Source: an uncultured Gemmatimonadota bacterium (GTDB lineage: Bacteria > JAAXHH01). Taken from it: DNA of 64,000 bases. Made by a program: the position numbers and the translations under genes. The notes beneath the pieces were generated by a model. That model saw nothing but the letters and a program-made list of their open reading frames with translations. It was not told the origin of the DNA and searched no databases. Each line of letters opens with the position of its first letter. The stretch's first letter is position 1. Below, one piece after another: positions 4,098-27,599 of this stretch. The stretch spans positions 2,464,001 to 2,528,000 of the forward strand of contig OX638340.1 in NCBI GenBank assembly GCA_951812955.1, given 5' to 3'.

Positions 4098-4253
4098 CTA
4101 TTCCTTCGCTTCCAGCGCTTCCACGGCGGCCTTGAGTTCAGCGATCTCGGCCTCCAGCTTCTTTTCACGGCCTGCGATTGTGAAGAGGTACACGAACAGC
4201 CCGATCCAAATCAGCGTGTATGCGGAAAACAAGTACCAGAAGTTCTGATCCAC
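4098..4253 (-). CDS. ccmD: haem exporter protein CcmD (51 aa, GTG start); absent from the ORF track
   Basis: Translation VDQNFWYLFSAYTLIWIGLFVYLFTIAGREKKLEAEIAELKAAVEALEAKE has a single TM helix plus a charged tail; AAGGAG Shine-Dalgarno 10 nt upstream; sits immediately downstream of ccmC as in ccmABCD operons. Confidence 0.6.
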   Translation of the reverse strand: MDQNFWYLFSAYTLIWIGLFVYLFTIAGREKKLEAEIAELKAAVEALEAKE

Positions 4254-4376: not shown

Positions 4377-5105
4377 TCAAACGCCTACGCTGCCGGGATG
4401 CCGGTGCTCCACGCGCTCCCGCAGGTCCTCGGCCTCGTCGCGCAGGCGCTCCAGCGCCATACGCCGGCCCATGAGGTAGAAGAAGAGCAGGGTGAAGACG
4501 ACCGCCGACACACCCAGCGCGATGCGCATGTCGACTTCCATGCCCGCTCCCAGGCCCTCTTCCGTCATGACCAGGGAGTCGGGGTGCAGGCCCCGCCACC
4601 ACATGGTCGCGAAATGGATGAAGGGGATATCGATCGTGCCGAGGATGCCCAGTACCGCGAGGAAGGTCTTCACCTGCGGCATGTCGTCGCCGTACACGCG
4701 CAGCATCAGGTAGGCTACGTAGATGAGCCAGAGAATCATGGAGAAGGTGAGCCGGGGGTCCCAGGTCCACCACGTTCCCCACACCGGCTTGCCCCAGATC
4801 GGACCGGTGATCATCACGAAGCAGCAGAAAACGAAACCGATCTCAGCGGCGCTGTAGGCCACGATGTCCCACTTCCGCTCCCGCAGCCACAGGTAGATGA
4901 CGCTCGAAACGCCCACCAGGACAAAGGCGAACTCCGCGATCCAGGCGGATGCTACGTGGAAATACATGATCCGCTGCACGTCGCCCATGACCCGCTCCCG
5001 GGGCGCCCAGATCAGCGAAAGGTACAGCGTGGCGACCAGTCCCAGGAGGCAGATGAGGCCGAAGGGGGTGATGCGCAGGCGGGCGGCTATTCCAGCCATT
5101 TTCAT
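4377..5105 (-). CDS. ccmC: haem exporter protein CcmC
   Basis: WWD domain GTWWTWDPRL; polytopic membrane protein. Confidence 0.9.
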   Translation of the reverse strand: MKMAGIAARLRITPFGLICLLGLVATLYLSLIWAPRERVMGDVQRIMYFHVASAWIAEFAFVLVGVSSVIYLWLRERKWDIVAYSAAEIGFVFCCFVMITGPIWGKPVWGTWWTWDPRLTFSMILWLIYVAYLMLRVYGDDMPQVKTFLAVLGILGTIDIPFIHFATMWWRGLHPDSLVMTEEGLGAGMEVDMRIALGVSAVVFTLLFFYLMGRRMALERLRDEAEDLRERVEHRHPGSVGV

Positions 5106-5782
5106 TCCTCCATAATGTACTCGAACAGCATGACGGACGCGACCAGGAATACGACCGTGAACACCGAAAGCAGCCTGATCCAGTTGGCCATGTCCTGCCA
5201 GTCGCCTCCTTCGAAGGTGGTCCGCGTCGTTTCCACCAGCGCGATCAGGACGGGCGAGGCTACGGGCAGCAGCAAGACCGGCAGCATGACGTCCCGCATG
5301 CGCGTGTTGACGGCCACGGCGGCGAAAAGGGTGGCGACGGACGAGAATCCAACCGTTCCCAGAAAGAATATCACCAACAGTTTAGACAGATGGGGCAGGA
5401 TTGTCATGTTGAAAAACAGGACGAACAGCGGAAGCATCGCCAGCTGGACCAGGCCGATGAGCGTGACGTTGCCTAGCAACTTGCCCAGGAATATGGATCC
5501 GCGGTCGATGGGCGCGAGGAGCAGTCCATCGAGTGTTCCCCGGTCTTTTTCCGGCGAGAAGGACCGGCTGGCGCTCAACATGCCTGCGAAGGCGAAGGCT
5601 ACCCAGATCATGCCGGGCACCACGCGCTGCACCACGTCCGCCCCCGCGTTGAAGGCGAAGTTGAAGATGACCACGACGATCAGCGAAAAGACGAACATGG
5701 TCACGACCCGCTCGCGGGTCCGGTATTCAACGACCATGTCCTTGCGGTAGATCTGCCATGACTGGGCGAGTAAGGATCTCAT
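5102..5782 (-). CDS. ccmB: haem exporter permease CcmB
   Basis: 226-aa six-TM ABC permease with CcmB-like sequence; 4-nt overlap with ccmC. Confidence 0.85.
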   Translation of the reverse strand: MRSLLAQSWQIYRKDMVVEYRTRERVVTMFVFSLIVVVIFNFAFNAGADVVQRVVPGMIWVAFAFAGMLSASRSFSPEKDRGTLDGLLLAPIDRGSIFLGKLLGNVTLIGLVQLAMLPLFVLFFNMTILPHLSKLLVIFFLGTVGFSSVATLFAAVAVNTRMRDVMLPVLLLPVASPVLIALVETTRTTFEGGDWQDMANWIRLLSVFTVVFLVASVMLFEYIMEE

Positions 5783-5912: not shown

Positions 5913-6623
5913 CTACACAGCGTGGTCCCGGTAAGCCTGTTCGAAATCTACCCTGGACAGGTCGCGTGTCCCGGCTTCGAAAACCAGACGACCCCGGTTC
6001 AGGATGGCGACGCGGTCGGCGGATTCCAGTCCGCGGGCCAGATCGTGGGTCACCAGGAGGATCGTCTTGTTCCGAGCGGTCAGGATCGTTTTCAGCATGA
6101 CCAGCGCGTCCTGGTCCAGCCCCGAGTAGGGTTCGTCGAGTAGCAGGACGTCCGGGTCGTGCAGCAAGGCGCGGGCCAGCGCCACCCGCTGGCGCATGCC
6201 GCGCGAAAGCGTGCGCACCGGACTCCCCGCCCTGGCATCCATGCCCACCGTGCGCAGCAGCGCTTCGATCCGCTCCTCGCCGTTTTTGATTCCGTACAGT
6301 TTTCCGTAGAACCGCATGTTCTCCCGTACGGTCAATTCGTCGTAGAGATAGGTCTGGTAGGACAGCACGCCGATCCGTTCTCCCAGGGACTCGTCGCGGT
6401 CCCCGGTGATTTCGTCTCCGTCCAGCAACACCTGGCCACGGGACGGACGCACGAGCCCGGCGATGACGCCCAGGAGGGTCGATTTGCCCGCGCCGTTGGG
6501 ACCGAACAGCGCCAGGAAGGATCCCGGCGCTACTTCCATGTCCACCCGGTGCAGTGCCCGGAAGCGGCCATAGGTCTTGGTCAACTGGCGGATGCTGATG
6601 CCGGGCGCGGATCGATCACCCAT
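5913..6623 (-). CDS. ccmA: haem ABC exporter ATP-binding protein CcmA (start moved to the internal Met; the ORF-track N-terminal extension overlaps the upstream gene)
   Basis: Walker A GPNGAGKSTLL, signature LSRGMRQRVALARAL; the internal start MGDRSAPGISIRQL gives an 8-nt overlap with the upstream stop. Confidence 0.8.
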   Translation of the reverse strand: MGDRSAPGISIRQLTKTYGRFRALHRVDMEVAPGSFLALFGPNGAGKSTLLGVIAGLVRPSRGQVLLDGDEITGDRDESLGERIGVLSYQTYLYDELTVRENMRFYGKLYGIKNGEERIEALLRTVGMDARAGSPVRTLSRGMRQRVALARALLHDPDVLLLDEPYSGLDQDALVMLKTILTARNKTILLVTHDLARGLESADRVAILNRGRLVFEAGTRDLSRVDFEQAYRDHAV

Positions 6624-7803
6624 CTCCGCTCCCGGGTTGGCGCAGGCGGAGCGCCCTGGCTTTAAGGCTGTCACGACGTGCGCGATAGGCGTCCTCGCCA
6701 AGTCCTCCAGCCTCAAACTGGTCGTCCAACGTGGCCAGGGCCTGGATGATCGCGGCATACTTGCGCTCGTCTTCCGGCGAGAGATCGGCAGTGGCCGGGG
6801 GTTCGTCCGCCTGTTCGGGCTTGACGCGGATGCCCACGACGAGCCCGGCGGCGACGATGAGCACCACGAATCCCAGCATGCTCCACTTCATGACGTCCTG
6901 CCAGGCCAGTATGCGGGGAAAGGCGACCTCCACCGACATGCCCCGCCCCACGCCCACGCGGTTCGACAGCAGCAGGTATTCGTCTTCGGCGATCTGCTGC
7001 ACGCCGTCGTTGGTCAGGTTGGTGGCCGTCACGGTCTCACTGCTGGGTGAAACCAGTACCTGGACGCGGGCTACGCCATAGTCCATCTGCCGCGTGAACC
7101 GGTGATCGATGGATGCCCTGTCCAAGTCGTAGGCGTACACGATCCGGGCGACCCCGGGGGAAATGGGCGCCGAGAAAACCAGGCCGCGGTCGGTGTGCTG
7201 AAGCCCGTCCACCATCGGCTGAAGTCCAAAGGCTTCGGCGGGGAGGGTGTAGACAAGTCCCATCCCCAAGCTGGGCGGCGGCGCGAAGGTCAGGTTTCCC
7301 CGGTTCTCCACGACGATAATTTCCGTGATGGTCAGTACATCGGGATTGGCTTCGACGACCAGGTGGACCGCGCTGTGGACCAGGGCGCTCTCATCCGTCG
7401 TGATGTCGTACACCTGGAGCGGGACTTCCTGCCGTCCGGCGCCCGGTTCAAGGGGAATATGGCCTGTCAGGTAGGGCATCTCCAGGTACCGGGTGGCGAC
7501 CACATAGTGAGAGCCGTCAGCCGCCAGTCCGGTGAATTCGTACCGGCCATCGCGATCGGTGACCACCCTTGCCAGGGTTGCGTCCGGACCCTCTTCGCTG
7601 CTGTGATTCAGCAGGACCACCTCGTGTCCGGCCATCGGCAGGCCGGTGGTACCGTTTACGACGGTGAGGCCGATGCTGCCCGTTTCCTGGGCCTGCGCGG
7701 GTCGGGCTGGCCAGAACCCGCAGACCGTCAGGGAGACAAGGGCCACCAGGGCCGCATAATAAACAAAAAGCCCCGAAGGGCTGGCGTGAAGTTGATGTTT
7801 CAT
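6616..7803 (-). CDS. hypothetical signal-peptide protein with a carboxypeptidase-regulatory-like (transthyretin-fold) domain, a C-terminal TM helix and a SHOCT-like cytoplasmic tail
   Basis: N-terminal signal sequence; GSIGLTVVNGTTGLP...DRDGRYEF CarboxypepD_reg-like segment; TM WSMLGFVVLIVAAGLVVGI; tail LDDQFEAGGLGEDAYRARRDSL. Confidence 0.5.
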   Translation of the reverse strand: MKHQLHASPSGLFVYYAALVALVSLTVCGFWPARPAQAQETGSIGLTVVNGTTGLPMAGHEVVLLNHSSEEGPDATLARVVTDRDGRYEFTGLAADGSHYVVATRYLEMPYLTGHIPLEPGAGRQEVPLQVYDITTDESALVHSAVHLVVEANPDVLTITEIIVVENRGNLTFAPPPSLGMGLVYTLPAEAFGLQPMVDGLQHTDRGLVFSAPISPGVARIVYAYDLDRASIDHRFTRQMDYGVARVQVLVSPSSETVTATNLTNDGVQQIAEDEYLLLSNRVGVGRGMSVEVAFPRILAWQDVMKWSMLGFVVLIVAAGLVVGIRVKPEQADEPPATADLSPEDERKYAAIIQALATLDDQFEAGGLGEDAYRARRDSLKARALRLRQPGSGDG

Positions 7804-7807: not shown

Positions 7808-8434
7808 TCAGTTCGAGATCAGTATAGTGCCGCACTGCGCACAGAATTTAGCTGTGGCGGGGTTTTCCGTTCCGCAGCCTTCGCACGTTATGCGCGTCAG
7901 CGAAGCGCCACACTCGATGCAGAATTTCGCGGATTCCTCGTTGACTGTACCGCAGCCACCGCATGACTGGCCACTCACGGGCTGCACGGGCTGAGCGGGC
8001 TGCACGGGCTGCACGGGCTGAGCGGGCCGCTTCTCGGAGTTCTTAGTTGCTTCAACGGGCGCTTCAACGACGGCCGCCCCGGGTTCCCTGCGGCGGCGGA
8101 TCTCCAGCACCGCCTCTTCGATCTGTTCCTCTACAGGCAGATCGCTGCCGGCGGTCCGGTCCAGTTCGTCCAGCACGTCGGAGGCTTCATTCATGTACTC
8201 CTGCCGGAGCGCTTCATGATCCTCGGCGGCCAGCTTGCCCATGCTGTAATCGATGTTCAACTCGCGGATGGACGAATAGATGAAGTCCTTCTTCTTCTGC
8301 AGGTCGTCCCGTCGGGCCAAGGCGGCCCACGCGGACCGGGCGGACCAGGGGCGGCGGTCCGATCTTTCCAGCATTGGACTTATCATGTAGGCGAGTACGC
8401 CCAGTGCGAGCAGTCCGCACGCAAGCAGTGTCAT
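7808..8434 (-). CDS. membrane-anchored double zinc-ribbon protein with PAQPVQ repeats
   Basis: N-terminal TM; four CxxC pairs in the C-terminal 55 aa (CGGCG, CIECG, CEGCG, CAQCG); 9-nt tandem DNA repeats at 7981-8029. Confidence 0.5.
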   Translation of the reverse strand: MTLLACGLLALGVLAYMISPMLERSDRRPWSARSAWAALARRDDLQKKKDFIYSSIRELNIDYSMGKLAAEDHEALRQEYMNEASDVLDELDRTAGSDLPVEEQIEEAVLEIRRRREPGAAVVEAPVEATKNSEKRPAQPVQPVQPAQPVQPVSGQSCGGCGTVNEESAKFCIECGASLTRITCEGCGTENPATAKFCAQCGTILISN

Positions 8435-8488: not shown

Positions 8489-8962
8489 TCAGGACCGGGG
8501 AAGCGGTTCCGGCGACTTAGGCTCGGTCTGCTCATACTGACCGTATCCCCCCTCGGCCTCGTACTTGGACGGACACTTGGCGTACAGTGTATGGGCGTTG
8601 AAGGTCCCATCCCGGGCGTATTCGCCCTCCACGACCACTTCGGAATCGTCCCTGAACGTGTCGGGGACTACGCCGGTGTATACGACGGGGGCCTCGACAC
8701 CGCCCTCGCGGGCAATGAAACGGATGCGCATGGAGCCCACGTCTCCGCGCTGGATCGATCCGTTCACGACCTTGCCGTGCAGACGCATATTCTCATCGTA
8801 ATCCACCTCGCCGGTTTCTACGGCGGCCTTCAGTTCACTCACCGTCAGGTAGTACATGGTCGCATCGGTCGCTCCGGTATAGATCAGGTAGCCGATGGCG
8901 GCGATCACCAGTCCGAAGCCCACCAGGAATTTACGTTGCTTCTTCCGCTTGCGGTTTTCCAT
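8489..8962 (-). CDS. ccmE: cytochrome c-type biogenesis haem chaperone CcmE, CxxxY variant
   Basis: N-terminal basic stretch, TM and OB-fold as in CcmE; LYAKCPSKYEAE aligns with the canonical LAKHDENYTP, with Cys replacing the haem-binding His; start taken at the internal Met MENRKRKKQRKF. Confidence 0.75.
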   Translation of the reverse strand: MENRKRKKQRKFLVGFGLVIAAIGYLIYTGATDATMYYLTVSELKAAVETGEVDYDENMRLHGKVVNGSIQRGDVGSMRIRFIAREGGVEAPVVYTGVVPDTFRDDSEVVVEGEYARDGTFNAHTLYAKCPSKYEAEGGYGQYEQTEPKSPEPLPRS

Positions 8963-9266
8963 AGCTTTTCTCCATGAATGCCCTGTCCTGCGCGACCTCC
9001 GCAATATAGGCGATACGCCCGGTTCCGGCAAGCACTATTTGACCCGAAGAAGGCGCATGCAACTGCCCGTGAGCAGGGGTATTCGGGGCGAAAACACCCG
9101 CTTCTCGCACAGGCGCGCGCGCAGGCGAATGTGCTTGACACCCACCCTGGCCACGCCTACCTTACGCCGGAGTTAACCCCGAAATGAATCTCGACCAGGG
9201 ATCGTGACGCCTGCCCCGTAAAATCCTGATATCGCGCCCCGTTTCGTCTTACTCTTCAGGAGCATC

Positions 9267-10184
9267 ATGACCGCTTTCACGTCTGCCCACGATGTCATCC
9301 AGCGCTTCGAAGCCCAGGACTATATCTGCGGTCCCGACCTGGCTACGCCCGTCTTCCTCATGGAACGGCTCGAAAAGCCGTTGCTGGTCGAGGGGCCGCC
9401 GGGCGTGGGGAAGACGGAGATCGCCAAGATGCTGGCCGACGCGCTGGGACGCCGCCTGATCCGCCTGCAGTGCTACGAGGGACTGGACGAATCCAAAGCG
9501 CTCTATGAATGGGAATACACCAAGCAGCTGCTGTATACGCAGATGCTCAAGGACCGCATCGGCGAACTGTTGAAACAGACGGAAACGCTCGGCAACGCGG
9601 TGGAAGCGCTCAACCGGGAGGACAGCGCATTCTTCTCCAGGCAATTCCTGCTCCCGCGGCCCCTGCTGGAGGCGATTCTCGCGCCGGAACCCGTCGTCCT
9701 CCTGGTCGACGAGATAGACCGGTCGGACGATGAGTTCGAAAGCTTCCTCCTCGAGGTGCTGAGCGACTTCCAGGTCAGCATCCCGGAACTCGGCACGCTG
9801 ACCGCGGCGCAGCGCCCCCTCGTGGTGCTGACGAGTAACGCCAACCGGAACCTGTCCGAGGCGCTGAGACGGCGGTGCCTGTATCTCTACATCAATTACC
9901 CCACTCTCGAGCAGGAGGTCCGGATCGTCCTATGCAAGACGCCGGGCATCGACGAGGACCTGGCGAACCAGGTCGTCCGGTTCGTCCAGAAAATCAGAAC
10001 GCTCAACATGCGCAAGCCCCCGAGCATCGCCGAAACGATCGACTGGGCGCTGGCGCTGGTGGTCCTGAACGCGCGGCACCTTTCGCGAGACACCCTTTCC
10101 AGCTCGCTGAACGTCCTGATGAAGGACCGCGAGGATATCGAACGGATCATGCGGGACGGCTACCATGATCAAGCGGCTGGTTGA
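9267..10184 (+). CDS. MoxR-family AAA+ ATPase
   Basis: Walker A GPPGVGKTE; MoxR-like length (305 aa); followed by its VWA partner. Confidence 0.85.
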   Translation: MTAFTSAHDVIQRFEAQDYICGPDLATPVFLMERLEKPLLVEGPPGVGKTEIAKMLADALGRRLIRLQCYEGLDESKALYEWEYTKQLLYTQMLKDRIGELLKQTETLGNAVEALNREDSAFFSRQFLLPRPLLEAILAPEPVVLLVDEIDRSDDEFESFLLEVLSDFQVSIPELGTLTAAQRPLVVLTSNANRNLSEALRRRCLYLYINYPTLEQEVRIVLCKTPGIDEDLANQVVRFVQKIRTLNMRKPPSIAETIDWALALVVLNARHLSRDTLSSSLNVLMKDREDIERIMRDGYHDQAAG

Positions 10185-11370
10185 GTTCGCCAGGACACTG
10201 AGACAATCCGGAGTGCGCGTTTCCATGGCCGAGACCCTGGACGCCGCCGAGGTGTTGCGGCACGCGCCGGTCACCGAACGGCCGGCCTTCAAGGCGTCCC
10301 TGCGGACCACCCTGGTAAAGTCCCACGAGGACATCCCCGCCTTCGACGAGGCCTTCGAACGGTTTTTCCTCGTCCAGGTGGGTGGGGAGACCGAGGGTCC
10401 GCCCGACGGCCATCCCGACCTCGACGACATCCACGATGACGGGGAACAGGACATCCGGCGTTTCCAGGACGAGCAGGGAGAGGCCATGGCCGGGGAAGGG
10501 GAAGGGGAGCCCGCGGACGGCGACGAACCAGATGAATTGGAAGGTGAACTGGAGCGGATGCTCGCCCGCGTGCAGGTGGGTGAACAGGCGTCCGATGCGG
10601 TCACCGAGTCCGGCGCACAGCCGAACCAGCAGGCGGAAGACGTCGATCTCTACCAGGAACTGCCGCCGGGCGACGTCGATAACCTGTACGAGGCGGTGGA
10701 GGAACTCGCCCGGAATCTCGTGACGCGCAAATCGCTGCGATTCAGGAAATCGCGCCACGGCCGGGTCGATATCAAGAAGACGATCCAGCGGAGTTTTCGC
10801 ACGGGCAACCTGCCCTTTCACATCATCTACAAGCACCGCAAGATCAAGAAGAACGAACTGGTCGTGCTGTGCGACGTATCGGGATCGGTCTGGGAGGTCG
10901 CCCGGTTCTTCATCAAGCTGGTCCACGAGATGCAAAACCAGTTCAGCCGGGCCCGCAGTTTTCTATTCGTGGACCGGATCAACGAGGTGACGGACGAGTT
11001 CGACAGCAGGCCCTTCGAAGATACAGTCGAGAACCTGAAGGACGACCATGCCCTTAATTTCTTCGGACTGAGCGATTTCGGCAGGGCCTTCTACCAGTTC
11101 CACGACGAACACCTCCTTTCCCTCTCTGGGAACACGGTGCTCGTCATCCTTGGCGACGCGCGGACGAACTGGTTCGATCCCCAGGACTGGGTACTTGGAG
11201 AATTGAACACAAGGGTGCACCAGACGATCTGGCTGAACCCGGAACCTGTGCAGTACTGGGACACCGACGACTCCGTCATGTCCAAATACAGCCCGCACTG
11301 CGATCACGTGCTGGAATGCCGGAATCTGGTCCAACTTAAGGAGATCGGCGAACTGATCCTCAGGGCCTGA
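10165..11370 (+). CDS. VWA domain protein of the MoxR-associated CoxE-like family
   Basis: VVLCDVSGSVW MIDAS-like segment; acidic linker; overlaps the MoxR stop by 20 nt. Confidence 0.75.
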   Translation: MIKRLVEFARTLRQSGVRVSMAETLDAAEVLRHAPVTERPAFKASLRTTLVKSHEDIPAFDEAFERFFLVQVGGETEGPPDGHPDLDDIHDDGEQDIRRFQDEQGEAMAGEGEGEPADGDEPDELEGELERMLARVQVGEQASDAVTESGAQPNQQAEDVDLYQELPPGDVDNLYEAVEELARNLVTRKSLRFRKSRHGRVDIKKTIQRSFRTGNLPFHIIYKHRKIKKNELVVLCDVSGSVWEVARFFIKLVHEMQNQFSRARSFLFVDRINEVTDEFDSRPFEDTVENLKDDHALNFFGLSDFGRAFYQFHDEHLLSLSGNTVLVILGDARTNWFDPQDWVLGELNTRVHQTIWLNPEPVQYWDTDDSVMSKYSPHCDHVLECRNLVQLKEIGELILRA

Positions 11371-11386
11371 CACCGATCGGACGGGT

Positions 11387-12172
11387 ATGATGACACGTTT
11401 TAAAAACATGAATTGCGTCGTCCTTGCGGCGCTTTGCTGCCTGCTCGGCGTGGCGCTGTGGACGAATCGCGGCGCCGGTGATTCGGGCCACGACCTCTTC
11501 CTGCGCAACGACTTCACCTTTGGCCGGGTAGTATACCAGAATTTCGGGGGCTTCTACCGGGGTTTCGGTTTCGGGCGGTGGTCGGTGGATTTCCCGTCTG
11601 CGGATTCCAACGTGATCCGCGCCCTGCGGGCCACCACTTCTCTCAAGATCAACGAACCGCAATCCGTGGAACTTACCGATCCCGAACTGTTCGATATTCC
11701 CTTTCTGTATATCCTGGAAGTCGGATCCCTGCAGTTCAGTCCGGAGGAAGTGGACGCCCTGCGGGAGTACCTATTGCGCGGGGGGTTCCTTCTGGTGGAC
11801 GACTTCCACGGTTCGCGGCAGTGGGCGGTCTGGGAATCGCAGATCAAGCGGGTGTTTCCCGGGCGGGACATCGAGGAGATACCGGCCGACCACCCGATCC
11901 TGCACTGTTACTATGATTTCGACACCTACCCCCTGGTGCCCGGGATCGCGGCGCTGTGGAACATGAACCACTACGAAAGGGACGGCGCCCTGTACGGCCA
12001 CAGGCTGCGGGGGATATTCGACGACGGCGGAAGGCTCATGGTGCTGATGAACTGGAACGCAGACCTGGGCGACGGCTGGGAACACGCGGCCGATCCCGGG
12101 TATCCGCGGGAGTTTTCCGTAACCGCCTACCGCCTGGCCGTCAATTACGCCATCTACGCGATGACGCATTGA
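11387..12172 (+). CDS. DUF4159 domain protein
   Basis: signal-like N-terminus and DUF4159-type segments (FGGFYRGFGFGRW, PFLYILEVGSLQFSPEEVDALREYLLRGGFLLVDD). Confidence 0.65.
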   Translation: MMTRFKNMNCVVLAALCCLLGVALWTNRGAGDSGHDLFLRNDFTFGRVVYQNFGGFYRGFGFGRWSVDFPSADSNVIRALRATTSLKINEPQSVELTDPELFDIPFLYILEVGSLQFSPEEVDALREYLLRGGFLLVDDFHGSRQWAVWESQIKRVFPGRDIEEIPADHPILHCYYDFDTYPLVPGIAALWNMNHYERDGALYGHRLRGIFDDGGRLMVLMNWNADLGDGWEHAADPGYPREFSVTAYRLAVNYAIYAMTH

Positions 12173-12236: not shown

Positions 12237-13289
12237 TCAATCGGCGGAGGACAGCTGCCTGAGCGCGGAGGTCATCACTTCGACGGACCGGAGATACTCG
12301 TCCAGTACGATGTGCTCGTCCGGCGTATGGTCCAGTCTTGAGTCTCCCGGACCGTAGGCCGCGATCGGGCACCCCCATGCCGGGCCGAGGATGCACATGT
12401 CCGACGTGCCCGTCTTCTTCTTGAAGGTGGGCCGGCCCCCAGCCTGCCGGATGGCCCGCAACAGCGAACGGATCATCGGGGTGTTCTTCGGCGCGACGAT
12501 TCCTACCAGCCGCCGGTCGCATTCGATCTCCGCGGGACCCGCCTGTTCCTTCACGAAGCCGATCAGGCCGTCTATGTCGTATTCCGGCGGCACGCGCATC
12601 GAGAAATAGGCGTCCACGCCTTCGGCCAATCCATGGTCGTAGGTATTGAATCGCCGCATTTCGAGCCGGGGAGACTCGAATTCGCTTTCGGTGGCGTGGG
12701 ATGCTGCGCGGGACCGCAGAGCGTTGTAAAGATCTACGGCCCGGTCCCCCGCCCGCCGATGGTCGCCGGCGTGATGGGCGTTGGGCTGTTCGAGCCGGTA
12801 GTCGAAACCTACGAAACCCTTGTACCCGATGGTGATGCTGTCCCAGCCGCTCGGCTCGCCGATGAATACGTAGCCCGGCCGCATGCGGTCCACCAGGTGG
12901 AAGGCGCCCTTCGACGTGGGGCACTCCTCTTCCACGGCGCCGACCAGGGTGATCCGGCCGTTTTCGAGTTCCGTCAAACGGGAAAGGGCGGCGGCGAAGG
13001 CGGCCAGTGGGCCCTTGGCGTCCACGGCGCCCCGGCCGTATAGGCGGCCGCTTTCTTCGCGTATCGGAACGACGCCCGGTACGGTGTCGATATGCCCGAC
13101 CAGTGCGATATGCGGTTCGCCGCGGCCGACTTCGCCCACGGCGTTTCCCGCCTCGTCCACGTGGGCACGGATCCCCCTCCGTTCCATCCACTCGATCAGG
13201 TAGGAGACCGCCTCGCTCTCCTGCGTTGAGGGACTGAACCGCTCGATAAGGCCCCGCAGCAGCGCGACGTCGTCGCGGGCGTCGCTCAT
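12237..13289 (-). CDS. lysK: [LysW]-lysine/ornithine hydrolase LysK (M20 peptidase, ArgE-like); start at the internal Met MSDARDD
   Basis: M20 motifs HIDTVPG, GAVDAKG; the ORF-track N-terminal extension overlaps lysJ; the chosen start makes an ATGA overlap with the lysJ stop at 13286-13289. Confidence 0.75.
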   Translation of the reverse strand: MSDARDDVALLRGLIERFSPSTQESEAVSYLIEWMERRGIRAHVDEAGNAVGEVGRGEPHIALVGHIDTVPGVVPIREESGRLYGRGAVDAKGPLAAFAAALSRLTELENGRITLVGAVEEECPTSKGAFHLVDRMRPGYVFIGEPSGWDSITIGYKGFVGFDYRLEQPNAHHAGDHRRAGDRAVDLYNALRSRAASHATESEFESPRLEMRRFNTYDHGLAEGVDAYFSMRVPPEYDIDGLIGFVKEQAGPAEIECDRRLVGIVAPKNTPMIRSLLRAIRQAGGRPTFKKKTGTSDMCILGPAWGCPIAAYGPGDSRLDHTPDEHIVLDEYLRSVEVMTSALRQLSSAD

Positions 13290-14554
13290 TTCCCCTCCCG
13301 GGCCGCGGTTCGGCCGCGGCCGGCGCGACGCCGATCCCGGCTGTTTCCTTCCCCGCGTCCCGGGCCGGACCGGCCGGACGACGGGTTTTCTCCAAGGGCG
13401 TCCAGTGCTTCGTGCGTTGCCGCCACAACCTGGTCGATTTCCTCCGTGGAGATCGACAGCGGCGGCAGGAACCGCAGCACGGTATTGCCCGCGGGCAGGG
13501 CTAGTACACCCCGTTCCATGAGCCCGCGCAGTACGGGCGTGACCCGGCTCTTCAGCTCGACGCCGATGATCAGGCCCATGCCCCGTATCTCCCGTACGGC
13601 GGGGTGGGCCAACGCCGCGAGGCCTTCCCGGAAATACCCGCCGGCCTCCCTGGCGTTCTCGACAAGGCCTTCCTCGTCCAGCACACGCAGAGTCGCCAGC
13701 CCCGCCGCGCAGATCACCGGGCTGCCGCCGAAGGTGTTTCCGTGGGACATGGACGGGACGCCCTGGACCGCGTCCCCGCAGAGCGCCGCGCCGACGGGGA
13801 GCCCTCCGGCCATGGCCTTGGCCAGGCAGAGGATGTCCGGCCGTATACCGTGGTGCTCGCAGGCAAACATGGCGCCCGTTCTGCCGAACCCGGTCTGCAC
13901 CTCGTCCACGATGAACAAAGCGCCCCGTTCCCTGCAAAGGGCCTCTACCCGCTTCAGGTACCCACCGTCGGCCACACGCACGCCGCCCTCTCCCTGCACG
14001 ACCTCGAGGATGACCGCGGCGGTCTCCTCGCCGATGGCTTCTTCCATGGCGGCGGGATCATTGTATCTGACGTGGGAGAATCCGGGCACGAGGGGTTCAA
14101 AGGGGGCGCGATACTTGGGGTTCCACGTCGCGCTCAATGCGCCGAAGGTGCGTCCGTGGAATCCGCGCTGGGCCGCGATCACGCCGGTTTTTCCCGTGAC
14201 GGCCCGGGCGAATTTCAACGCCGCTTCCACCGCCTCCGTACCGGAGTTGCACAGGAACAGCCGGTCGAGCCCCGCCGGGGCCGCCTCGACCAGGGCCGCG
14301 CCCAGTTCCGCACGCACATCGTTGTAGAAGGAGTCCGGGCATATCGTGAGGCGGTTCACCTGCCGCGTGACCGCTTCGGCCACGGCCGGGTGGCTGTGGC
14401 CAATGTTGGCCGTGCCGATCCCGCCGATGCAGTCGATGTATTCCTTACCGGCGGCGTCCCATACACGCGTGCCGCGGCCGCGGACGATCACCGCGTCGCG
14501 TTTCGGCAGGATGCCCATGGAAACGCCATTTTCCATTGTCTGGTAGTCTGTCAT
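13286..14554 (-). CDS. lysJ: acetylornithine/[LysW]-aminoadipate-semialdehyde aminotransferase (class III PLP)
   Basis: GIRPDILCLAKAMAGGLPVGA PLP-lysine region; ArgD/LysJ-like throughout. Confidence 0.85.
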   Translation of the reverse strand: MTDYQTMENGVSMGILPKRDAVIVRGRGTRVWDAAGKEYIDCIGGIGTANIGHSHPAVAEAVTRQVNRLTICPDSFYNDVRAELGAALVEAAPAGLDRLFLCNSGTEAVEAALKFARAVTGKTGVIAAQRGFHGRTFGALSATWNPKYRAPFEPLVPGFSHVRYNDPAAMEEAIGEETAAVILEVVQGEGGVRVADGGYLKRVEALCRERGALFIVDEVQTGFGRTGAMFACEHHGIRPDILCLAKAMAGGLPVGAALCGDAVQGVPSMSHGNTFGGSPVICAAGLATLRVLDEEGLVENAREAGGYFREGLAALAHPAVREIRGMGLIIGVELKSRVTPVLRGLMERGVLALPAGNTVLRFLPPLSISTEEIDQVVAATHEALDALGENPSSGRSGPGRGEGNSRDRRRAGRGRTAAREGK

Positions 14555-14576
14555 GTTCCCCGTACTCCTGTTTTCG

Positions 14577-15374
14577 TTACCCGATTACCGTGCCCTGTCC
14601 ACGCAGCGCAGCCGTGACGGGTCCGGGTATCCTCCCGTCGCCCAGGATCACCTTTCCCACCCCGACTTCCAGCGCCTCTTTCGCGCCGAGCAGCTTCTTC
14701 TTCATGCGGTCCCGGGCGTGGGTCGCGATCGCCTCGTCTATGTCCTCACGGGCGAGGCGGGGGATCAGCGTGTCTTCGTCCTCGGCGTCCTCGAGGAATC
14801 CAGGCGTGTTGGAAAGGATGACCAGCCTGTCCGCCCCGAGGGCGTCGGCGATCACGGCGGCCGCCCGGTCGCCGTCCACGTTGATGATCTCCCCCTCGTA
14901 GCTGATGGCCGGCGGCGTGATGACCGGCAGGTAACCCTGGTCCAGCAATGAGGTCAGCAGCGGTACGTTCGCCTTCTCGACCCGGCCTGTGTAATCGTTT
15001 CTCAGGACCTTCTTCCGGCCGTCCTCCACGATCCGGAGGGTGGGTTTCCGCCTGCCCTCGAGGAGGCGACCGTCGACCCCGCTCAGTCCTACGGCGTTGG
15101 CGCCGAGCTGCTGCAGTTTCTCCACGATGCGCTTGTTTCGCTTGCCGCAATACACCATGTTGAAGATATCCAGCGTCTCCGGATCGGTATATCGGCTCGT
15201 GTACCCGGAGGGCGACGTGACCATGCGGGGCGGCTTGCCCAGTTGTGTCGATACGGTGTTCAATTCGTCGGAACCGCCGTGCACCAGCACCAGCGGTTCG
15301 GTCTGCCGCGCGATGTCCTCCAGTACGTAGTCCAGGTTGATGCCCCTGCTGCCTCCGGTCTTCACCACGATCAT
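14577..15374 (-). CDS. lysZ: [LysW]-aminoadipate/glutamate kinase (amino-acid kinase family)
   Basis: MIVVKTGGS N-terminus and AAK fold; ATGA overlap with the hisS stop. Confidence 0.8.
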   Translation of the reverse strand: MIVVKTGGSRGINLDYVLEDIARQTEPLVLVHGGSDELNTVSTQLGKPPRMVTSPSGYTSRYTDPETLDIFNMVYCGKRNKRIVEKLQQLGANAVGLSGVDGRLLEGRRKPTLRIVEDGRKKVLRNDYTGRVEKANVPLLTSLLDQGYLPVITPPAISYEGEIINVDGDRAAAVIADALGADRLVILSNTPGFLEDAEDEDTLIPRLAREDIDEAIATHARDRMKKKLLGAKEALEVGVGKVILGDGRIPGPVTAALRGQGTVIG

Positions 15375-16636
15375 GCCGTGCCGCCTCCCTTAACCGCGTC
15401 CAGCACCTCCCACCTGGGAAGGGCCGTCTGCGTACTGTCCGCCATGCGCCGTACCATGACGACGCCGTTTTTCACCTCTTCTTCGCCGATGATCAGGGTG
15501 TATGCGGCACCGATCCGGTCGGCCTGCTTCATCTGGGCCTTCAGGCTGCGGTCCTCCCACAGGGCCGCCGCGCCCACGCCGGCCGAGCGAAGTTCCTGTG
15601 CCAGGACCACGGCGGCGTCCTTGGCCTCGGCGCCGAGATAGGCAACGAACACGGCAGGTTTCGGCACTTCCGGGGGTTCGATCCCCTCCTGCTTCATCGT
15701 GAGGATGATGCGCTCTATGCCCGACGCGAAGCCGATAGCCGGCGTTTCGGGTCCGCCCACCATTCCGATCAGTCCGTCGTACCGCCCGCCCCCGCACACC
15801 GCGTTCTGCGCGCCGATGCCCTCTGCCCAGACCTCGAACACCGTCTTCGTATAGTAGTCGAGTCCCCGCACCATGCGGTGGTTGACCTCGTAAGGGCGGC
15901 CCAGGGCGTCCAGGTACGACCTCAGCTGGACGAAGTGGTCATTGCATGCACCGCACAGGGATTTCGCGATCCGCGGCGCCCCCTCCGCTATCTTCCCGCA
16001 GGATTCCCGCTTGCAATCCAGAAGCCGCAGCGGGTTCTCGCCATAGCGGCGCCGGCAATCATCGCAGATCCCGTCCAGGTGCTGTTCGTACCAAGCCTTC
16101 AGCGTAGCGATGTATCCAGGCCGGCAAGCGGGACACCCCGTACTGTTCACCTGGAAGGACAGCCCCTTGATGCCGACGGCTTCGTAGATCTGCCAGGCGA
16201 CCTGCATCACCTCGAGGTCGATGGCCGGGTCCTGGCTGCCCAGTACCTCCACGTCGACCTGGTAGAACTGGCGGTATCTTCCCGCCTGCGGACGTTCGTA
16301 CCGGAAAGCCGGACCGATCGTATAGAGTCTCAGGGGCTGGGGCCTGCCATGGAGCTTGCGCTCGGCGTAGGCTCGGCAGATCCCCGCCGTGAATTCGGGC
16401 CGCAGCGTCATGCGCTCGTCACTCCGGTCGCGGAAGGTGTACATCTCCTTCTCCACGATGTCCGTGGTCTCGCCGACGCCCCGCTCGAAGAGGCCGGTCT
16501 GCTCGAAGACGGGCACGTCGATCCGCTCGTAGCCGTACAGTTCGCAGACCTGCCGGGTCATCTCGGTCACGAACCGCCAGTAGGCCTGGTCCTCCGGCAG
16601 GATGTCGTAGGTGCCTCTCGGTGCCTGGAATTTCAT
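15371..16636 (-). CDS. hisS: histidine--tRNA ligase
   Basis: MKFQAPRGTYDILPED..., class II aaRS motifs; start at the internal Met with AGGAAG upstream. Confidence 0.9.
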   Translation of the reverse strand: MKFQAPRGTYDILPEDQAYWRFVTEMTRQVCELYGYERIDVPVFEQTGLFERGVGETTDIVEKEMYTFRDRSDERMTLRPEFTAGICRAYAERKLHGRPQPLRLYTIGPAFRYERPQAGRYRQFYQVDVEVLGSQDPAIDLEVMQVAWQIYEAVGIKGLSFQVNSTGCPACRPGYIATLKAWYEQHLDGICDDCRRRYGENPLRLLDCKRESCGKIAEGAPRIAKSLCGACNDHFVQLRSYLDALGRPYEVNHRMVRGLDYYTKTVFEVWAEGIGAQNAVCGGGRYDGLIGMVGGPETPAIGFASGIERIILTMKQEGIEPPEVPKPAVFVAYLGAEAKDAAVVLAQELRSAGVGAAALWEDRSLKAQMKQADRIGAAYTLIIGEEEVKNGVVMVRRMADSTQTALPRWEVLDAVKGGGTA

Positions 16637-16668
16637 TTTGGTCTTCCTATACCGGTCTATACCGGTTC

Positions 16669-17712
16669 CTATACCGGATGCAGGCCCGGAAACTCGAGGC
16701 CCGTCCGTTCGTCCCACCCGTACATGATGTTGAGCGCCTGAACGGCCTGGCCGGCCGCGCCCTTGACCAGGTTGTCCAGCGCCCCCATGACCACGACGCG
16801 GTCGCTGTGCTCGTCCCGTTCGAACCCGACGTCGCAGAAGTTGGTGCCCGACAGGAACTTCGGATCGGGATAGCGGAACACGCCCTGCCGCTCCTTGATG
16901 ATGCGGATGAAGGGCTCCCGTCCATAGGCCTCCCGGTAGATACTCCAGATTTCCCGTTCTGACAGGCCGTCGTTCACGAAGGCGTGGGTCGTCATCAGGA
17001 TGCCGCGCACCAGTTCGATGGCCGTCGCGGAGAAATGGACCTGCGGCGCCTGTCCCCCGAAAGTCAGTTCCTGCACGATCTCTGCCGTATGGCGATGACC
17101 CGTAGGCTTGAAAGAGCGCACCGCGCCGCTTCGGTCGGGGTGGTGGGTGGACCGGTCGGCCCGGTTACCGGCAGCGGAGGACCCGATCTTGCCCTCCATG
17201 TAGAGACGCGAGGGGTCCACCGCGCCAGCCCGCACCAGGGGCGCCAGCGACAGGATCGCCGTGGCGGCCAGGCAACCGGTGCACGCGACGTGCTCGGCGT
17301 CCCGTATCTCGTCACGGTACAGTTCGGCCAGGCCGTACACGAAGCGGTCCAGCATCTCCGGGTGCGCGTGCTCGTGCCCGTACCACGTGGGATAGTCCGC
17401 CGCGTTCCGCAGGCGGAAGTCCGCGCTCAGGTCGATGATGCGGCCGCCCAGGCCCGAAAAGGCGTCCCATCGTTTCATGGCCTCCCCGTGGGGCAGGCAC
17501 AGGCACAATACGTCGCAGGGCTCCAGGTCGGCCATGGCGCTGAATTTCAGGTCCGTGACTCTGCGGAGGTTGGGATGGGCGCGTCCGACGGGCTTGCCGG
17601 CCTGCGATTCCGACGTCACCTGATGGATTTCTATTTCGGGGTGGAAGAGCAGCAGCCGAAGCAGTTCGCCGCCGCCGTACCCGGACGCTCCTGCGATCGA
17701 CACCTTGATCAT
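16669..17712 (-). CDS. lysY: [LysW]-aminoadipyl/glutamyl-phosphate reductase (ArgC/LysY)
   Basis: [24 protein letters not shown]-binding N-terminus; catalytic Cys region VACTGCLA. Confidence 0.85.
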
Positions 17713-18536
17713 GATCGGGCCACCTTTACCAGGTAGTCTATGATGCGCCCGGGAATGTCCACACCCGTTGGCCGGACGCTGTTACGGAATTCCATGGTGT
17801 AGTTCACCTCGTTGACCAGGATCCCCTCGGGAGATTCAAGCAGGTCGACCGCCACCACGCCGCCGCCCACCGCTTCCGCCGCGCGGGAGGACAGCGTCCC
17901 CACGTCCCCGTCGATGGGACAGTCCGCGGTCGTTCCCCCCAGGGCTGTGTTGGTCTTCCAGTGATCCGAATAGCGGTAGACGGCGCAGATGGTTTCGCCG
18001 TCGACCACGAAGGACCGGATATCCCGCCCGGGCTTCTCCACGTACTCCTGGATATAGAACACGGAGTGGTGATAGGACCCCAGGACCTCCTTGTGCTCCA
18101 GCACCGCTTCCGCCGCGTGGCGGTCGTTGATGCGGGCGATCAGCCGTCCCCACGATCCGATGGGCGGCTTGAGTACGACGGGGTAACCCATGGTTTCCAT
18201 CACCTCCAGCGCCGCTTCCGCCGTGAAGGCCACGCGCGCCTTCGGCGTCGGTACGCCGTGATCCACCAGCGCCATGGTCGTCAGGAACTTGTTCCCGCAC
18301 ACGCGGGCCACGTCGTAGGTGTTAACCGTCCTGATACCGCTGGCGTTCAGCATCTTGAGCGAGTAGAGCGCCCTGGAGTGGTTGACGCACCGCTCCAGGA
18401 TGACGTCGTGGTCGTACCGGTGGTTCTCCAGGTCGAAGATGATGCGCCGGTCGTCCATCCGGTCGAAGGCGACGCCCCGTTTCGCAGCCGCCTCGAAGAG
18501 CATCTTCTGTTCCGTGGATACAATGGAAAGTAGCAT
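17709..18536 (-). CDS. lysX: RimK-type ATP-grasp ligase, LysX/ArgX family (start at [10 protein letters not shown]; the ORF-track 510-aa form is an artefactual extension)
   Basis: ATP-grasp RimK-like sequence; 8-nt gap to the upstream paralog stop. Confidence 0.8.
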
Positions 18537-18544
18537 GCCGATCT

Positions 18545-19399
18545 TCACGATGCCCTGCCTCCCTTCGTCACCGTATCCGCTACGTAGTCCATGATTTTGC
18601 CCGGTATATTGACCCCGGTGGCGTCCGACGCGTCGGAAAGGCCGGACGGCGGGCCCATCTCCTGCACGTACCAGGCGTCCTTCGTGCGGACCATGTCCAC
18701 CACCGCGACGCCGCCGCCAATGGCCTCGACGGCAGAGACCGCCAGGCCGTTCAACTCCTCCGTTACGGGTTCGTTCTCCATCAGGCCGCCGGCGGCGATG
18801 GTCCCGATCCAGTGATGGGTCAGCACCGACACGGCGGCCACCGTCTCGCCACCCACCACGTACGCCCGTATGTCGTGACCAGGCGCATCGATATGTTTCT
18901 GCATGAAGAAGATGGAATGGTGATAAGCGCCGAGTATGCGTTTGTGCTCCAGGACCGTCGCCGCCGTATACTTGTCTCCTATGCGGGAAACGAGCTGGTC
19001 CTCGGGGCCCTCCGCGGGTCTCAATACGACCGGGTATCCCATGTCTTCCATTGCCTTGAGCGCCGAGTCCGGCGTATAGGCCAGGCGCATGTCCGGAACC
19101 GGGACGCCCCTCTCCCGCAACGCCAGGGTCGTCAGCAGCCGGTTTCCGTAGGTCTCCACCACGGACTGCCGATTCACCGTGGGTATGCCCCAGTGGTCGA
19201 ACACGGAGAGCGCGTATACGGCCCGGTGGTGATCGACGCACCGTTCCAGGACCACGTCCAGGTCCATGTGCCGGCGGTCGAGTTCGAAGACCTGCCGGGA
19301 ATTGTCGATCGTCGTCACGTCGAAACCGCGCAGACCCGCTTCGGCGATCAGCCGCTTTTCGTCCTTTCGGATCCGAGACAGCACAATGCCCATTTCCAT
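18545..19399 (-). CDS. second RimK-type ATP-grasp ligase, LysX/ArgX-family paralog
   Basis: 284 aa, colinear with the downstream paralog and visibly similar to it (for example GYPVVL[KR]P, HHS[VI]F); amino-acid identity not counted. Confidence 0.8.
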
Positions 19400-22495: not shown

Positions 22496-25185
<2,690 letters not shown>

Positions 25186-25194
25186 GCCCGAGTC

Positions 25195-26304
25195 TCAGTC
25201 ATAAGGCGTCACCGCGCCTTCGTGGACGCGGAAACGGGTAATCCCGCGCCGGTAGTCCCCGATATCGCTTTCTTTGGCCGTCGTAATGAAGGTCTGGCCG
25301 TACGTGGGAACCATTTCCATCAGGCGGCCCGTCCTGGCAGCGTCGATCTCCGCGAAGATGTCATCGAGAAGCAGCAGCGGGGGGGCCTGCAACTGGCGCC
25401 AGAGAAAGCGGGCTTCCGCCAGCTTCAGGGCCGTCGCCGCCGTCTTGTGCTGCCCCTGCGATCCAAATGTCTGCAGCGACACCCCGTTCATCCGGATGGA
25501 CAGGTCGTCCCGGTGCGGCCCCACCTCCGTCATGCCCCGCGCCCGTTCCCGGGACGCGGCACGGTCCAGCGCCTCCTCGAAGGCGGCCTCGATATCGGCC
25601 AGGGCCTCGAAATCGAAGGATGGCGCATAGCCGATCTCCAGTCGCTCCGCGTCTTCACTGACGGAGGCGTGAATACCCGACGCTTCATCCTTCAGGTCCG
25701 CGATCACTTCCACCCGTTTCCTCATGATGCGGCTGCCAAGCTCGACAAGCGGCACGTTCCATACTTCGAGGTCTCCCATCCTTCCCGGGTTCTCCTGTAA
25801 CGCACGCAAGGCCTCGTTGCGTTGGCGGACCACCCGTCTGTACTCCTGCAGGGCGGAAAGATACGCCGCGTTGGACTGCGAGATCGCAATGTCCAGAAAA
25901 CGCCGGCGTGAACTCGGCGAGCCCTGGACGAGCCTCCGGTCGTCCGGTGAAATCACCACGGCTGCCAGGATGCCGTACAGATCCGACAGGTTCCGCCGGG
26001 GAGACTCGTTTACGAATACCTTCTTTCCCGCCTGGCGGGCGTACCTGATCTGCACCTCGACCTCCCTGCCCTCCGCCGACCGCCCCGTTCCCTGTATCAG
26101 GAAATGGTCCGATCCCATGCGCACGAGATCCCGGTCCTGTGACTCGCGGCAGGAACGGGCCACGCATAGGTAGTAAATCGCCTCCAGGAGGTTGGTCTTG
26201 CCCTGGCCGTTCGTTCCGATAAAAACATTTGTCTGTAAATCACAGGCCAGCGACAGGTCCGTGTAATTCCTGAAATGGCGGAGGTCCAGCCCTTGCAGGT
26301 GCAC
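25195..26304 (-). CDS. recF: DNA replication and repair protein RecF
   Basis: Walker A GTNGQGKTNLLEA; SMC-like. Confidence 0.9.
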   Translation of the reverse strand: MHLQGLDLRHFRNYTDLSLACDLQTNVFIGTNGQGKTNLLEAIYYLCVARSCRESQDRDLVRMGSDHFLIQGTGRSAEGREVEVQIRYARQAGKKVFVNESPRRNLSDLYGILAAVVISPDDRRLVQGSPSSRRRFLDIAISQSNAAYLSALQEYRRVVRQRNEALRALQENPGRMGDLEVWNVPLVELGSRIMRKRVEVIADLKDEASGIHASVSEDAERLEIGYAPSFDFEALADIEAAFEEALDRAASRERARGMTEVGPHRDDLSIRMNGVSLQTFGSQGQHKTAATALKLAEARFLWRQLQAPPLLLLDDIFAEIDAARTGRLMEMVPTYGQTFITTAKESDIGDYRRGITRFRVHEGAVTPYD

Positions 26305-26306
26305 CT

Positions 26307-27437
26307 TTAACTTTCCGGTTCGGTCGTTCTAAAGGGCATGATCAGGCACTGGTAGTCCTCGCCCTCCGCTTCTTCTTTGGAAGGGGTGATGATCCCCGCG
26401 CTGACGGGTGAATCGAGTTTGAAAACCACTTCGTCGCTCTCGATCCGTTCCACGACATCGAGCAGATACCGGAAGTCGTAGGTCGTATCCATGGCTTCAC
26501 CTTCGTATTCGGCCGGCACTTCCTCCCGGGCTTCTCCGCCGATGTCATGGCTGGACGAACTCAATTCGACGAACCCCGGCCGGAACGAATACCGAATCTG
26601 CCGGGTGGAGGGGTTGGACAGGACGGACACCCGACGGACGGCGCTTTCCAGTTCTTCGCGGTTCACCTTGACCACCTTGTCGTTCCCCGTGGGAATAACC
26701 CGTTCGTAATCCGGATAGGTCGCTTCGATCAGCCTGGCGAACAGCTGGGCGTTCTCGAGTTCGAAATGGACGTGGTTCTGGCCGATCGTGATGCGGGACG
26801 GCGTATCCGATTCTCCGATGAGGCGCGAGAGGTTGTTCAGCGCTTTTGGCGGCACGATGATCCCCTCCGTGCCCTCATCGGAAACATCACAGGGGAGGGT
26901 CGTCTTGGCCAGGCGGTGCCCATCGGTTGCCACCATCCGGACGGCGCCTCTGCCTATGCGCAGGAAAGCGCCCCACAGACTCGGGTGTATCTCGTCCTTC
27001 GATACCGCATACACTGTCTTGCGGATCAACCGCTGCAACGAAGACGCCGGCAGGGAAATGGTCTGATCCGAAGGCAGATCGGGCATCGCCGGGTACTCTT
27101 CCTTGCTGATGCCCACCAGGCGGAACACCCCCCTGTCGCACCTGACCGTCACCTTGACCCCGTCCACCTCGATATCCACGGGCGCATCTGGTAACTCGCG
27201 CACCATCTCCGCGAATTTCCTTCCGGGCACCGTGATAGAGCCTCCCTCCGTTATCTGGGCGGGTATCTTCGTCACGATGAATATATCCAGATCGGTGGCC
27301 CCTATCGTCAGGTGGCCATCTTCGGTCTCGAGCAGCAAGTTGGACAGGATGGGCAGGGTGGACTTCGGTGGGACGACATTCAGGACGGTCTGTATACCGC
27401 TCATCAGCGTGGAACTGGCCGGTATGGTGATCTTCAC
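26307..27437 (-). CDS. dnaN: DNA polymerase III beta sliding clamp (GTG start with AAGGAG SD; the upstream ATG of the ORF track is rejected)
   Basis: VKITIPASS...TLPILSNLLLE is typical of DnaN; AAGGAG 7 nt upstream of the GTG. Confidence 0.9.
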   Translation of the reverse strand: MKITIPASSTLMSGIQTVLNVVPPKSTLPILSNLLLETEDGHLTIGATDLDIFIVTKIPAQITEGGSITVPGRKFAEMVRELPDAPVDIEVDGVKVTVRCDRGVFRLVGISKEEYPAMPDLPSDQTISLPASSLQRLIRKTVYAVSKDEIHPSLWGAFLRIGRGAVRMVATDGHRLAKTTLPCDVSDEGTEGIIVPPKALNNLSRLIGESDTPSRITIGQNHVHFELENAQLFARLIEATYPDYERVIPTGNDKVVKVNREELESAVRRVSVLSNPSTRQIRYSFRPGFVELSSSSHDIGGEAREEVPAEYEGEAMDTTYDFRYLLDVVERIESDEVVFKLDSPVSAGIITPSKEEAEGEDYQCLIMPFRTTEPES

Positions 27438-27599
27438 AGAGGTACTCCTTTGGGCAATCGTCGCCGGTTGCCTTGTTCGATGCACTCGGCATGGAATGAA
27501 CAAAGGCCGCAATTTGTACAGTAACCTTTTACCACTATTGAATATTATAAAGAAAACAGGAGGCAGTACGCAAGGGATTTGTGAGGCAAATCCTACTTC

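Follow-up and report, generated by a model that had tools for sequence, protein, structure and literature searches.

The window (the whole 64-kb stretch of DNA that was analysed) carries a cytochrome c maturation (ccm) cluster of seven co-directional, tightly spaced or overlapping genes: ccmE, a gene for a 208-aa protein, a gene for a 395-aa protein, ccmA, ccmB, ccmC, and ccmD. ccmE is the first gene of the operon. The seven-gene order recurs in eight genomes of the window's clade and at two further loci (L087 and L088). The features of the cluster are as follows.

8489–8962, minus strand: ccmE of the Cys type (CcmE*), 157 aa; identified by PF03100, PDB alignments, and an AlphaFold2 model with a fold search
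8561–8575, minus strand: codons of Cys130-Pro-Ser-Lys-Tyr134 (TGT CCG TCC AAG TAC), the predicted haem-binding motif CxxxY
9003–9031, minus strand: sigma-70-like promoter match upstream of ccmE (TTGCCG-17-TATATT, 9/12 matches); weak, a consensus match only
7808–8434, minus strand: 208-aa protein with an N-terminal transmembrane (TM) helix, a conserved cytoplasmic motif resembling the CcmI N-terminus (IRELNIDYSMGKLAAEDH...), and two C-terminal zinc ribbons
6616–7803, minus strand: 395-aa type-I membrane protein with a signal peptide, a periplasmic part made up of a CarboxypepD_reg-like beta domain and another beta region, a TM helix at about residues 301–326, and a cytoplasmic helical hairpin
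5913–6623, minus strand: ccmA (ABC ATPase), 236 aa; PF00005, E 2.6e-36; TIGR01189, 129 bits against a cut-off of 131.6
5102–5782, minus strand: ccmB (haem exporter permease), 226 aa; PF03379, E 2.2e-35; TIGR01190, E 1.1e-19
4377–5105, minus strand: ccmC, 242 aa; PF01578, E 1.9e-27
4098–4253, minus strand: ccmD (alternative CcmD family), 51 aa; TIGR04391 (CcmD_alt_fam), 41.7 bits against a cut-off of 24, E 8.1e-11

The ccmE reading frame (8489–8962, minus strand) consists of 157 codons without an internal stop, and its translation ends with ...AHTLYAKCPSKYEAEGGYGQYEQTEPKSPEPLPRS. A GGAG can be read in the nucleotide sequence 9 nt 5' of the ATG at 8962. A longer frame with a TTG start (8489–9031) was rejected, since this is not the start used by relatives and the closest CcmE homologues are all 157 aa long. 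The protein matched Pfam PF03100 with 92.7 bits (gathering cut-off 24.6, E 1.9e-26) over profile positions 2–98 of 99, and it scored below the individual cut-offs of all NCBIfam CcmE equivalog models (best 76 bits versus 126). An AlphaFold2 model, calculated from an alignment of 27 homologues, had a mean pLDDT of 81.7 and showed a helix at residues 3–34 and a beta-barrel at residues 37–128, followed by a tail that loses confidence at about residue 130. The predicted layout is accordingly a membrane anchor at approximately residues 12–33, an OB-fold barrel at residues 37–128, and a flexible tail from residue 129. A Foldseek search of the PDB with this model returned CcmE structures at ranks 1–4 (8ce8_E, 1sr3, 1j6q, and 1lm0), and D. 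vulgaris CcmE (2kct) at rank 10. Both the domain score and the architecture of anchor, OB fold, and tail are those of the CcmE family.

The residue at the haem-binding position is encoded by TGT (8575–8573), and the Tyr of the motif by TAC (8563–8561). In a phmmer search against the PDB, the stretch 'lyakcpsky' (residues 126–134) aligned without gaps with 'vlakhdeny' of E. coli CcmE (8ce8_E and 1sr3_A), and likewise with Shewanella CcmE (1j6q). The alignment places Cys130 on E. coli His130 and Tyr134 on Tyr134, KCPSKY of the window corresponding to KHDENY of E. coli residue for residue, and the same search placed 'kcp' of the Cys-type CcmE from D. vulgaris (2kct) on 'kcp' of the window protein. 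The window CcmE lacks the His of the canonical HxxxY type at the position of E. coli His130 and possesses the CxxxY of the Cys type. CPSKY was found at the motif site in 114 of the 120 best database homologues, while five of the remaining six have CPSKF and one is frameshifted. C130, P131, and S132 are invariant in the 27-sequence alignment, whose members go down to 38% identity. To judge from the sequences, Cys130 is clearly under selection.

That the Cys is instead an alignment or sequencing artefact, or belongs to a decaying gene copy whose true haem ligand is a His elsewhere, has a negligible probability and is refuted by the gapless alignments to four solved CcmE proteins that put the Cys on His130, by the invariance of the motif across phyla, and by the occurrence of the identical CcmE protein on at least five independent contigs; H62 and H124 do exist in the protein, but the model places both in the region of the barrel and neither in the tail. 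The identity and the fold of the protein follow from the PF03100 score, the motif alignment, the conserved CPSKY, and the match of the model to CcmE structures. Our main reading, to which we give a probability of about 0.85, is that the window gene encodes a functional Cys-type CcmE (CcmE*), a periplasmic haem chaperone with one N-terminal membrane helix. The first-pass annotation had taken the gene for a ccmE whose product carries Cys at the site of the His that normally binds haem covalently, and had named alignment with reference CcmE sequences as the way to check it; the domain match, the ungapped PDB alignments, and the 114 CPSKY sequences bear this out, and the residue at the haem-binding position is Cys and not His.

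The protein resembles canonical E. coli CcmE (H130xxxY134; 1SR3 and 8CE8) in its length, membrane anchor, OB fold, flexible tail, Tyr134, and CcmABCD partners. It differs in having Cys for His130 and AKCPSKYE in place of AKHDENYTP, in an identity of 27–30%, and in falling below the NCBIfam equivalog cut-offs. Two variations of the motif were seen elsewhere. The CPSKF subgroup (P0075, P0077, P0078, P0085, and P0089) has Phe where the others have the Tyr that presumably serves as haem-iron ligand. In Actinomycete and Ktedonobacter loci, a second, tandem CcmE paralogue lies just upstream of the CPSKY copy (L062:9455-9946, L077:9470-9931, and L082:51-485); it also has Cys at the motif site, followed by a different tail (CPDKL or CPHRY).

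The haem-delivery module of System I is complete, CcmA, CcmB, CcmC, and CcmD being encoded together with CcmE, intact and with their catalytic motifs present. The start of ccmA overlaps the stop of the preceding 395-aa gene, and the 236-aa gene call is identical in relatives. CcmC aligned with E. coli CcmC (7f02_C) at E 9.6e-24, and both the WWD motif (WGTWWTWDPRLT) and the equivalents of the two haem-ligand His residues (MYFHVA and WWRGLHP) are kept. A small ORF is called at the position of ccmD in relatives too.

The two genes between ccmE and ccmA encode membrane proteins with a common element. The cytoplasmic motif conserved in the family of the 208-aa protein is IRELxxDYRMGKLxxxDY, and the zinc ribbons (Pfam DZR and Zn_Ribbon_1) are optional in this family, numbering none, one, or two by lineage, with two in the window protein. 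The match of the 208-aa protein to TIGR03142 (CcmI) is weak (E 0.005–0.011, 16–17 bits against a cut-off of 29.3), and the same model matched 44 of 55 homologues at E<=0.05 (best 1e-6), all under the cut-off. Identity as CcmI was rejected on the basis of the sub-threshold TIGR03142 scores, the lack of a second TM helix and of TPRs, and the presence of the zinc ribbons. By its sequence, the 208-aa protein is best described as CcmI-N-like, with a resemblance that is consistent but sub-threshold. In the Cys-type ccm clusters of a wide range of phyla, a homologue is encoded at this same place, with either ccmA or the gene of the large protein immediately downstream of it.

The 395-aa protein scored 30.7 bits against PF13620, slightly under the cut-off of 32.3, and its cytoplasmic hairpin contains a CcmI-like motif, IADLDDxYExGxLxExxYRxRR. 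In loci of Latescibacterota, Acidobacteriota, Eisenbacteria, and Ktedonobacter, its homologues follow the small protein and precede ccmA, and the large periplasmic protein was found in 18 of 55 related ccm clusters (about a third). Alignment of the 395-aa and 208-aa proteins with hhalign gave a probability of 96% and E 2e-9 over the TM helix and the motif. The iterative HMMs of the small and the large proteins recruited each other's members; contamination was rejected as the cause, in favour of a real shared module (hhalign E 2e-9). On these profile alignments, the TM-plus-motif modules of the two proteins are judged to be homologous. In an AlphaFold2 model of the 395-aa protein from a single sequence, only the TM and cytoplasmic helices were confident, the periplasmic part having a pLDDT of about 30. 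A full-text literature search found no paper linking CcmI with 'zinc ribbon' and cytochrome c maturation. As two conserved cluster genes for which no description was found, they are candidates for new Ccm components.

The remainder of the window contains genes of other systems. Three genes that are syntenic with ccmE in all loci of the clade and its sister clade lie divergent from it at 9267–12172 on the plus strand. The first encodes a MadB-like AAA ATPase (NF047784, 349.6 bits, under the cut-off of 475), the second a MadC-like VWA protein, and the third a DUF4159 protein; the AAA/VWA pair is unrelated to ccm. A cluster for LysW-type (AAA pathway) lysine/arginine biosynthesis follows at 12237–19241 on the minus strand, with hisS inserted; it comprises genes for [LysW]-lysine hydrolase, an aminotransferase, an amino-acid kinase, and a semialdehyde dehydrogenase, and two LysX-like ATP-grasp genes. 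The neighbourhood of the chromosomal replication origin lies at 22496–36581, with dnaA (28181–29542), dnaN, recF, gyrB, and gyrA on the minus strand and rnpA, yidC, mnmE, mnmG, and rsmG on the plus strand. A 902-aa TPR protein at 45629–48337 was considered as CcmI and rejected (PF23914, 34.7 bits against a cut-off of 42; generic TPR matches; a peptidase domain). The segment at 52000–64000 has a lower GC content (0.49–0.55, versus about 0.62 elsewhere) and contains a MacB/FtsX-type permease and a pair of paralogous proteins of 624 aa (56324–58198 and 58538–60412), each with an ECF sigma-factor domain at the N-terminus. The segment may be a strain-variable island, because the proteins at the two window ends had no exact match in the contig collection. 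No unambiguous gene for a c-type cytochrome was found in the 64-kb window; its sole CxxCH is in one of the two sigma-factor fusion proteins.

The distribution of the Cys form was examined in a collection with one genome per species, by a search that was seeded with 12 closer CcmE sequences and relied mainly on the octapeptide AKCPSKYE. More than 599 matching stretches were obtained, and at least 581 species genomes from many phyla were confirmed. The labels among the 80 best loci were Acidobacteriota (the majority), Latescibacterota, Gemmatimonadota, Zixibacteria, and Eisenbacteria, and further Deferribacteraceae, Dehalococcoidia, Aerophobetes, Actinomycetes, Verrucomicrobiia, and Ktedonobacter. 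The nearest relatives of the window are uncultured MAGs with inconsistent labels (Gemmatimonadetes or Latescibacterota), for example L005 (99% identical) and L007 (92%); an identical CcmE is encoded on one 3.85-Mb contig. The CxxxY, or 'System I*', type of CcmE is a known one (Allen 2006, Goddard 2010, Gupta 2022), and the variant has been on record since 2006. The CxxxY form corresponds to the 'System I*' type of the literature (review PMC3601427; PMC9084895). The window CcmE is correctly recognised but ordinary, one more member of an already known Cys form that is common in many uncultured phyla. The earlier description of CxxxY as known from archaea and a few bacteria stands in so far as System I* is a known variant, while the restriction to a few bacteria does not hold in view of the at least 581 species genomes with AKCPSKYE.

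The gene content of the cluster is less ordinary. A Pfam scan of every substantial ORF found no ccmF, ccmH, or ccmG in the 64-kb window, and tblastn and HMM searches of the window with the CcmF and CcmH of relatives matched only the WWD region of ccmC. The clade of the window was defined by the loci L002, L005–L011, L087, and L088, whose CcmE is at least 73% identical to that of the window. In these loci a small protein is encoded within about 55 bp after ccmE, with no ccmH; ccmF and ccmH are missing from the cluster in all ten clade loci examined, and the rest of the cluster is strictly conserved. In the related clade genomes, no ccmF, ccmH, or ccmG was found within 10 kb of ccmE. The sister clade (L012, L085, and L086), with CcmE 65–70% identical to that of the window, is syntenic and has the order ccmE, ccmH, small protein, large protein, ccmABCD, ccmF being already outside the cluster.

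Outside the clade of the window, ccmE is as a rule followed by ccmF, then by a CcmH-family gene, the gene of a small CcmI-N-like protein, in some cases that of the large periplasmic protein, and finally ccmABCD. Among the 58 related loci with at least 3.5 kb of sequence downstream of ccmE, ccmF directly follows ccmE in 56 and a CcmH-family gene is present in 42. The CcmF of related loci is about 660 aa long and has WGGYWxWD; the example from L013 carries PF16327 and PF01578. The Cys-type clusters of Acidobacteriota, Latescibacterota, and others (L013–L084) resemble that of the window in their CPSKY CcmE, the CcmI-N-like small protein, and ccmABCD, and in many cases also in the large periplasmic protein. 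They differ from it by ccmF and, in most cases, a five-Cys CcmH-family gene that come directly after ccmE, neither of which is present in the cluster of the window's clade. The assignment of the CcmH-like ORFs was supported by matches to PF03918 at E<=0.001 in all 48 that were scanned (best 1.1e-23), with 52.4 and 67.6 bits against a 25-bit cut-off for two that were scored singly, and a profile of these ORFs matched the solved CcmH structures 2kw0 (E 2.6e-8) and 2hl7 (E 8.8e-8). The CcmH-family (PF03918) genes of Cys-type clusters (L013–L086, for example L042:12345-13016 and L085:10458-10937) encode five invariant cysteines (CxCGxC...CxCG); canonical CcmH has a single LRCxxC pair, with which two of the five cysteines align.

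Because Cys-type CcmE and CcmH normally coexist and ccmE and ccmH are adjacent in the sister clade, the absence of ccmH is a recent loss in the window's clade, at least as far as the cluster is concerned, and does not follow from the presence of the Cys. The truly unusual point about the window is that its cluster contains neither half of the CcmF/H synthase. The first-pass annotation was right that the gene content of this ccm cluster is atypical, ccmF, ccmH, and ccmG being absent from the 64 kb and two extra genes preceding ccmA. Its statement that the Cys form usually goes with a missing CcmH fails for the related clusters, given the CcmH-family gene in 42 of 58 loci and the ccmE-ccmH pair of the sister clade.

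The Desulfovibrio and archaeal systems provide the closest points of reference. Window CcmE resembles the System I* CcmE of Desulfovibrio desulfuricans and D. vulgaris (CxxxY; 2KCT) in its OB fold and in having Cys at the His130 position followed by Pro, with 36% identity over the fold. In both systems ccmD is present, and no ccmH or ccmG lies beside window ccmE. The Desulfovibrio operon reportedly (Goddard 2010) carries ccmF together with ccmE, in the order ccmEFABCD. In contrast, the window cluster has no ccmF, and it has the genes for the CcmI-N-like zinc-ribbon protein and the 395-aa periplasmic protein between ccmE and ccmA. The archaeal CcmE of Methanosarcina acetivorans (C120xxxY) likewise has CxxxY; its Cys is indispensable for attaching haem, and the streamlined machinery to which it belongs does without CcmH (PMC9084895). 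Unlike the window, which has CcmD-family and CcmI-N-like genes, archaea lack CcmD and CcmI. Archaeal CcmF is split, and the window cluster encodes no CcmF.

In the mechanism that we propose, CcmC would hold haem on its WWD domain between the two His ligands and present it to CcmE. Cys130, in place of His130, would bind a haem vinyl group, presumably as a thioether, with Tyr134 as the axial ligand. CcmAB would use ATP hydrolysis to release holo-CcmE, with CcmD taking part, and holo-CcmE would then hand the haem to a CcmF-type synthase encoded elsewhere, for attachment to CxxCH apocytochromes. This last half of the pathway, the CcmF step, is a proposal here because neither the window nor the 10 kb next to ccmE in relatives yielded a ccmF, ccmH, or ccmG. 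We infer the covalent Cys-haem chemistry of window CcmE by analogy with the CcmE proteins of D. desulfuricans and M. acetivorans. [quoted passage not shown] Haem binding that is covalent or depends on the Cys is known only from the CcmE proteins of D. desulfuricans, D. vulgaris, and M. acetivorans. The nature of the Cys-haem bond is unsettled even in the reference systems, because D. vulgaris CcmE is reported to bind haem through its Cys in a non-covalent manner (PMC3884852).

Taking the gene as a functional Cys-type CcmE, we considered three views of the system to which it belongs. The first, which we rate at somewhat under even odds, takes System I* in the strict sense: the Cys form goes with CcmH-less machinery, the Cys chemistry makes CcmH dispensable, and the genome truly lacks CcmH. 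The literature defines System I* as CcmH-less (PMC3601427), and the 64-kb window contains no CcmH-family gene. A search with the CcmH of the sister clade yielded 19 proteins, all on contigs of the sister type and none on the multi-Mb contigs with a CcmE of the window's clade; this search detected nothing below 38% identity, so that a divergent ccmH beside a relocated ccmF would be missed. The CcmH-family gene in the cluster of 42 of the 58 loci of the wider CPSKY clade, and its place next to ccmE in the nearest sister clade, speak against the strict view.

We hold it to be possible, but rather unlikely, that the bacterial Cys-type Ccm is a distinct and widespread variant of System I that is not CcmH-less and that employs a five-Cys CcmH-family protein together with two CcmI-motif proteins, the clade of the window being a further reduced form without CcmH and possibly without CcmF. 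Of the two accessory proteins, which share the CcmI-like TM-plus-cytoplasmic motif, one may be characterised by the optional zinc ribbons and the other by a periplasmic beta-sandwich ectodomain.

It is improbable that CcmABCDE* and the two CcmI-motif proteins act without CcmF and CcmH as a haem module that, instead of maturing cytochromes c, may serve to export haem, to buffer it, or to pass it to some other acceptor. The loss of ccmF and ccmH from an otherwise strictly conserved cluster in ten of ten clade loci, and the lack of a cytochrome c gene in the 64 kb, would fit such a role. A protein search with the CcmF of L013 (the nearest locus having ccmF) was uninformative on this point, none of the 120 matches listed being on a contig of a length known from the clade. 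However, the window covers no more than 64 kb out of a genome of about 3.85 Mb. In the sister clade, ccmH, whose product is a partner of CcmF, is retained although ccmF lies outside the cluster there too, and ccmF can therefore simply be located elsewhere. The CcmI-like gene is also retained; in known systems CcmI acts with CcmF and CcmH.

The identification of window ccmE as a Cys-type CcmE adds one more member to this form, and annotation pipelines already label such genes CcmE. In a broader context, several large and for the most part uncultured phyla have the Cys form as their standard CcmE, and the usual coexistence of this form with a CcmH-family protein weakens the textbook equation of 'Cys-CcmE' with 'no CcmH'. 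The clade of the window and its sister clade constitute a natural pair, without and with ccmH in otherwise syntenic operons, which could be used to study the role of CcmH when a cysteine carries the haem. If the Cys-type systems of bacteria do form a distinct variant of System I, the two CcmI-motif proteins may substitute for functions of CcmH and CcmI, for example in the handling of apocytochromes or in coupling to CcmF.
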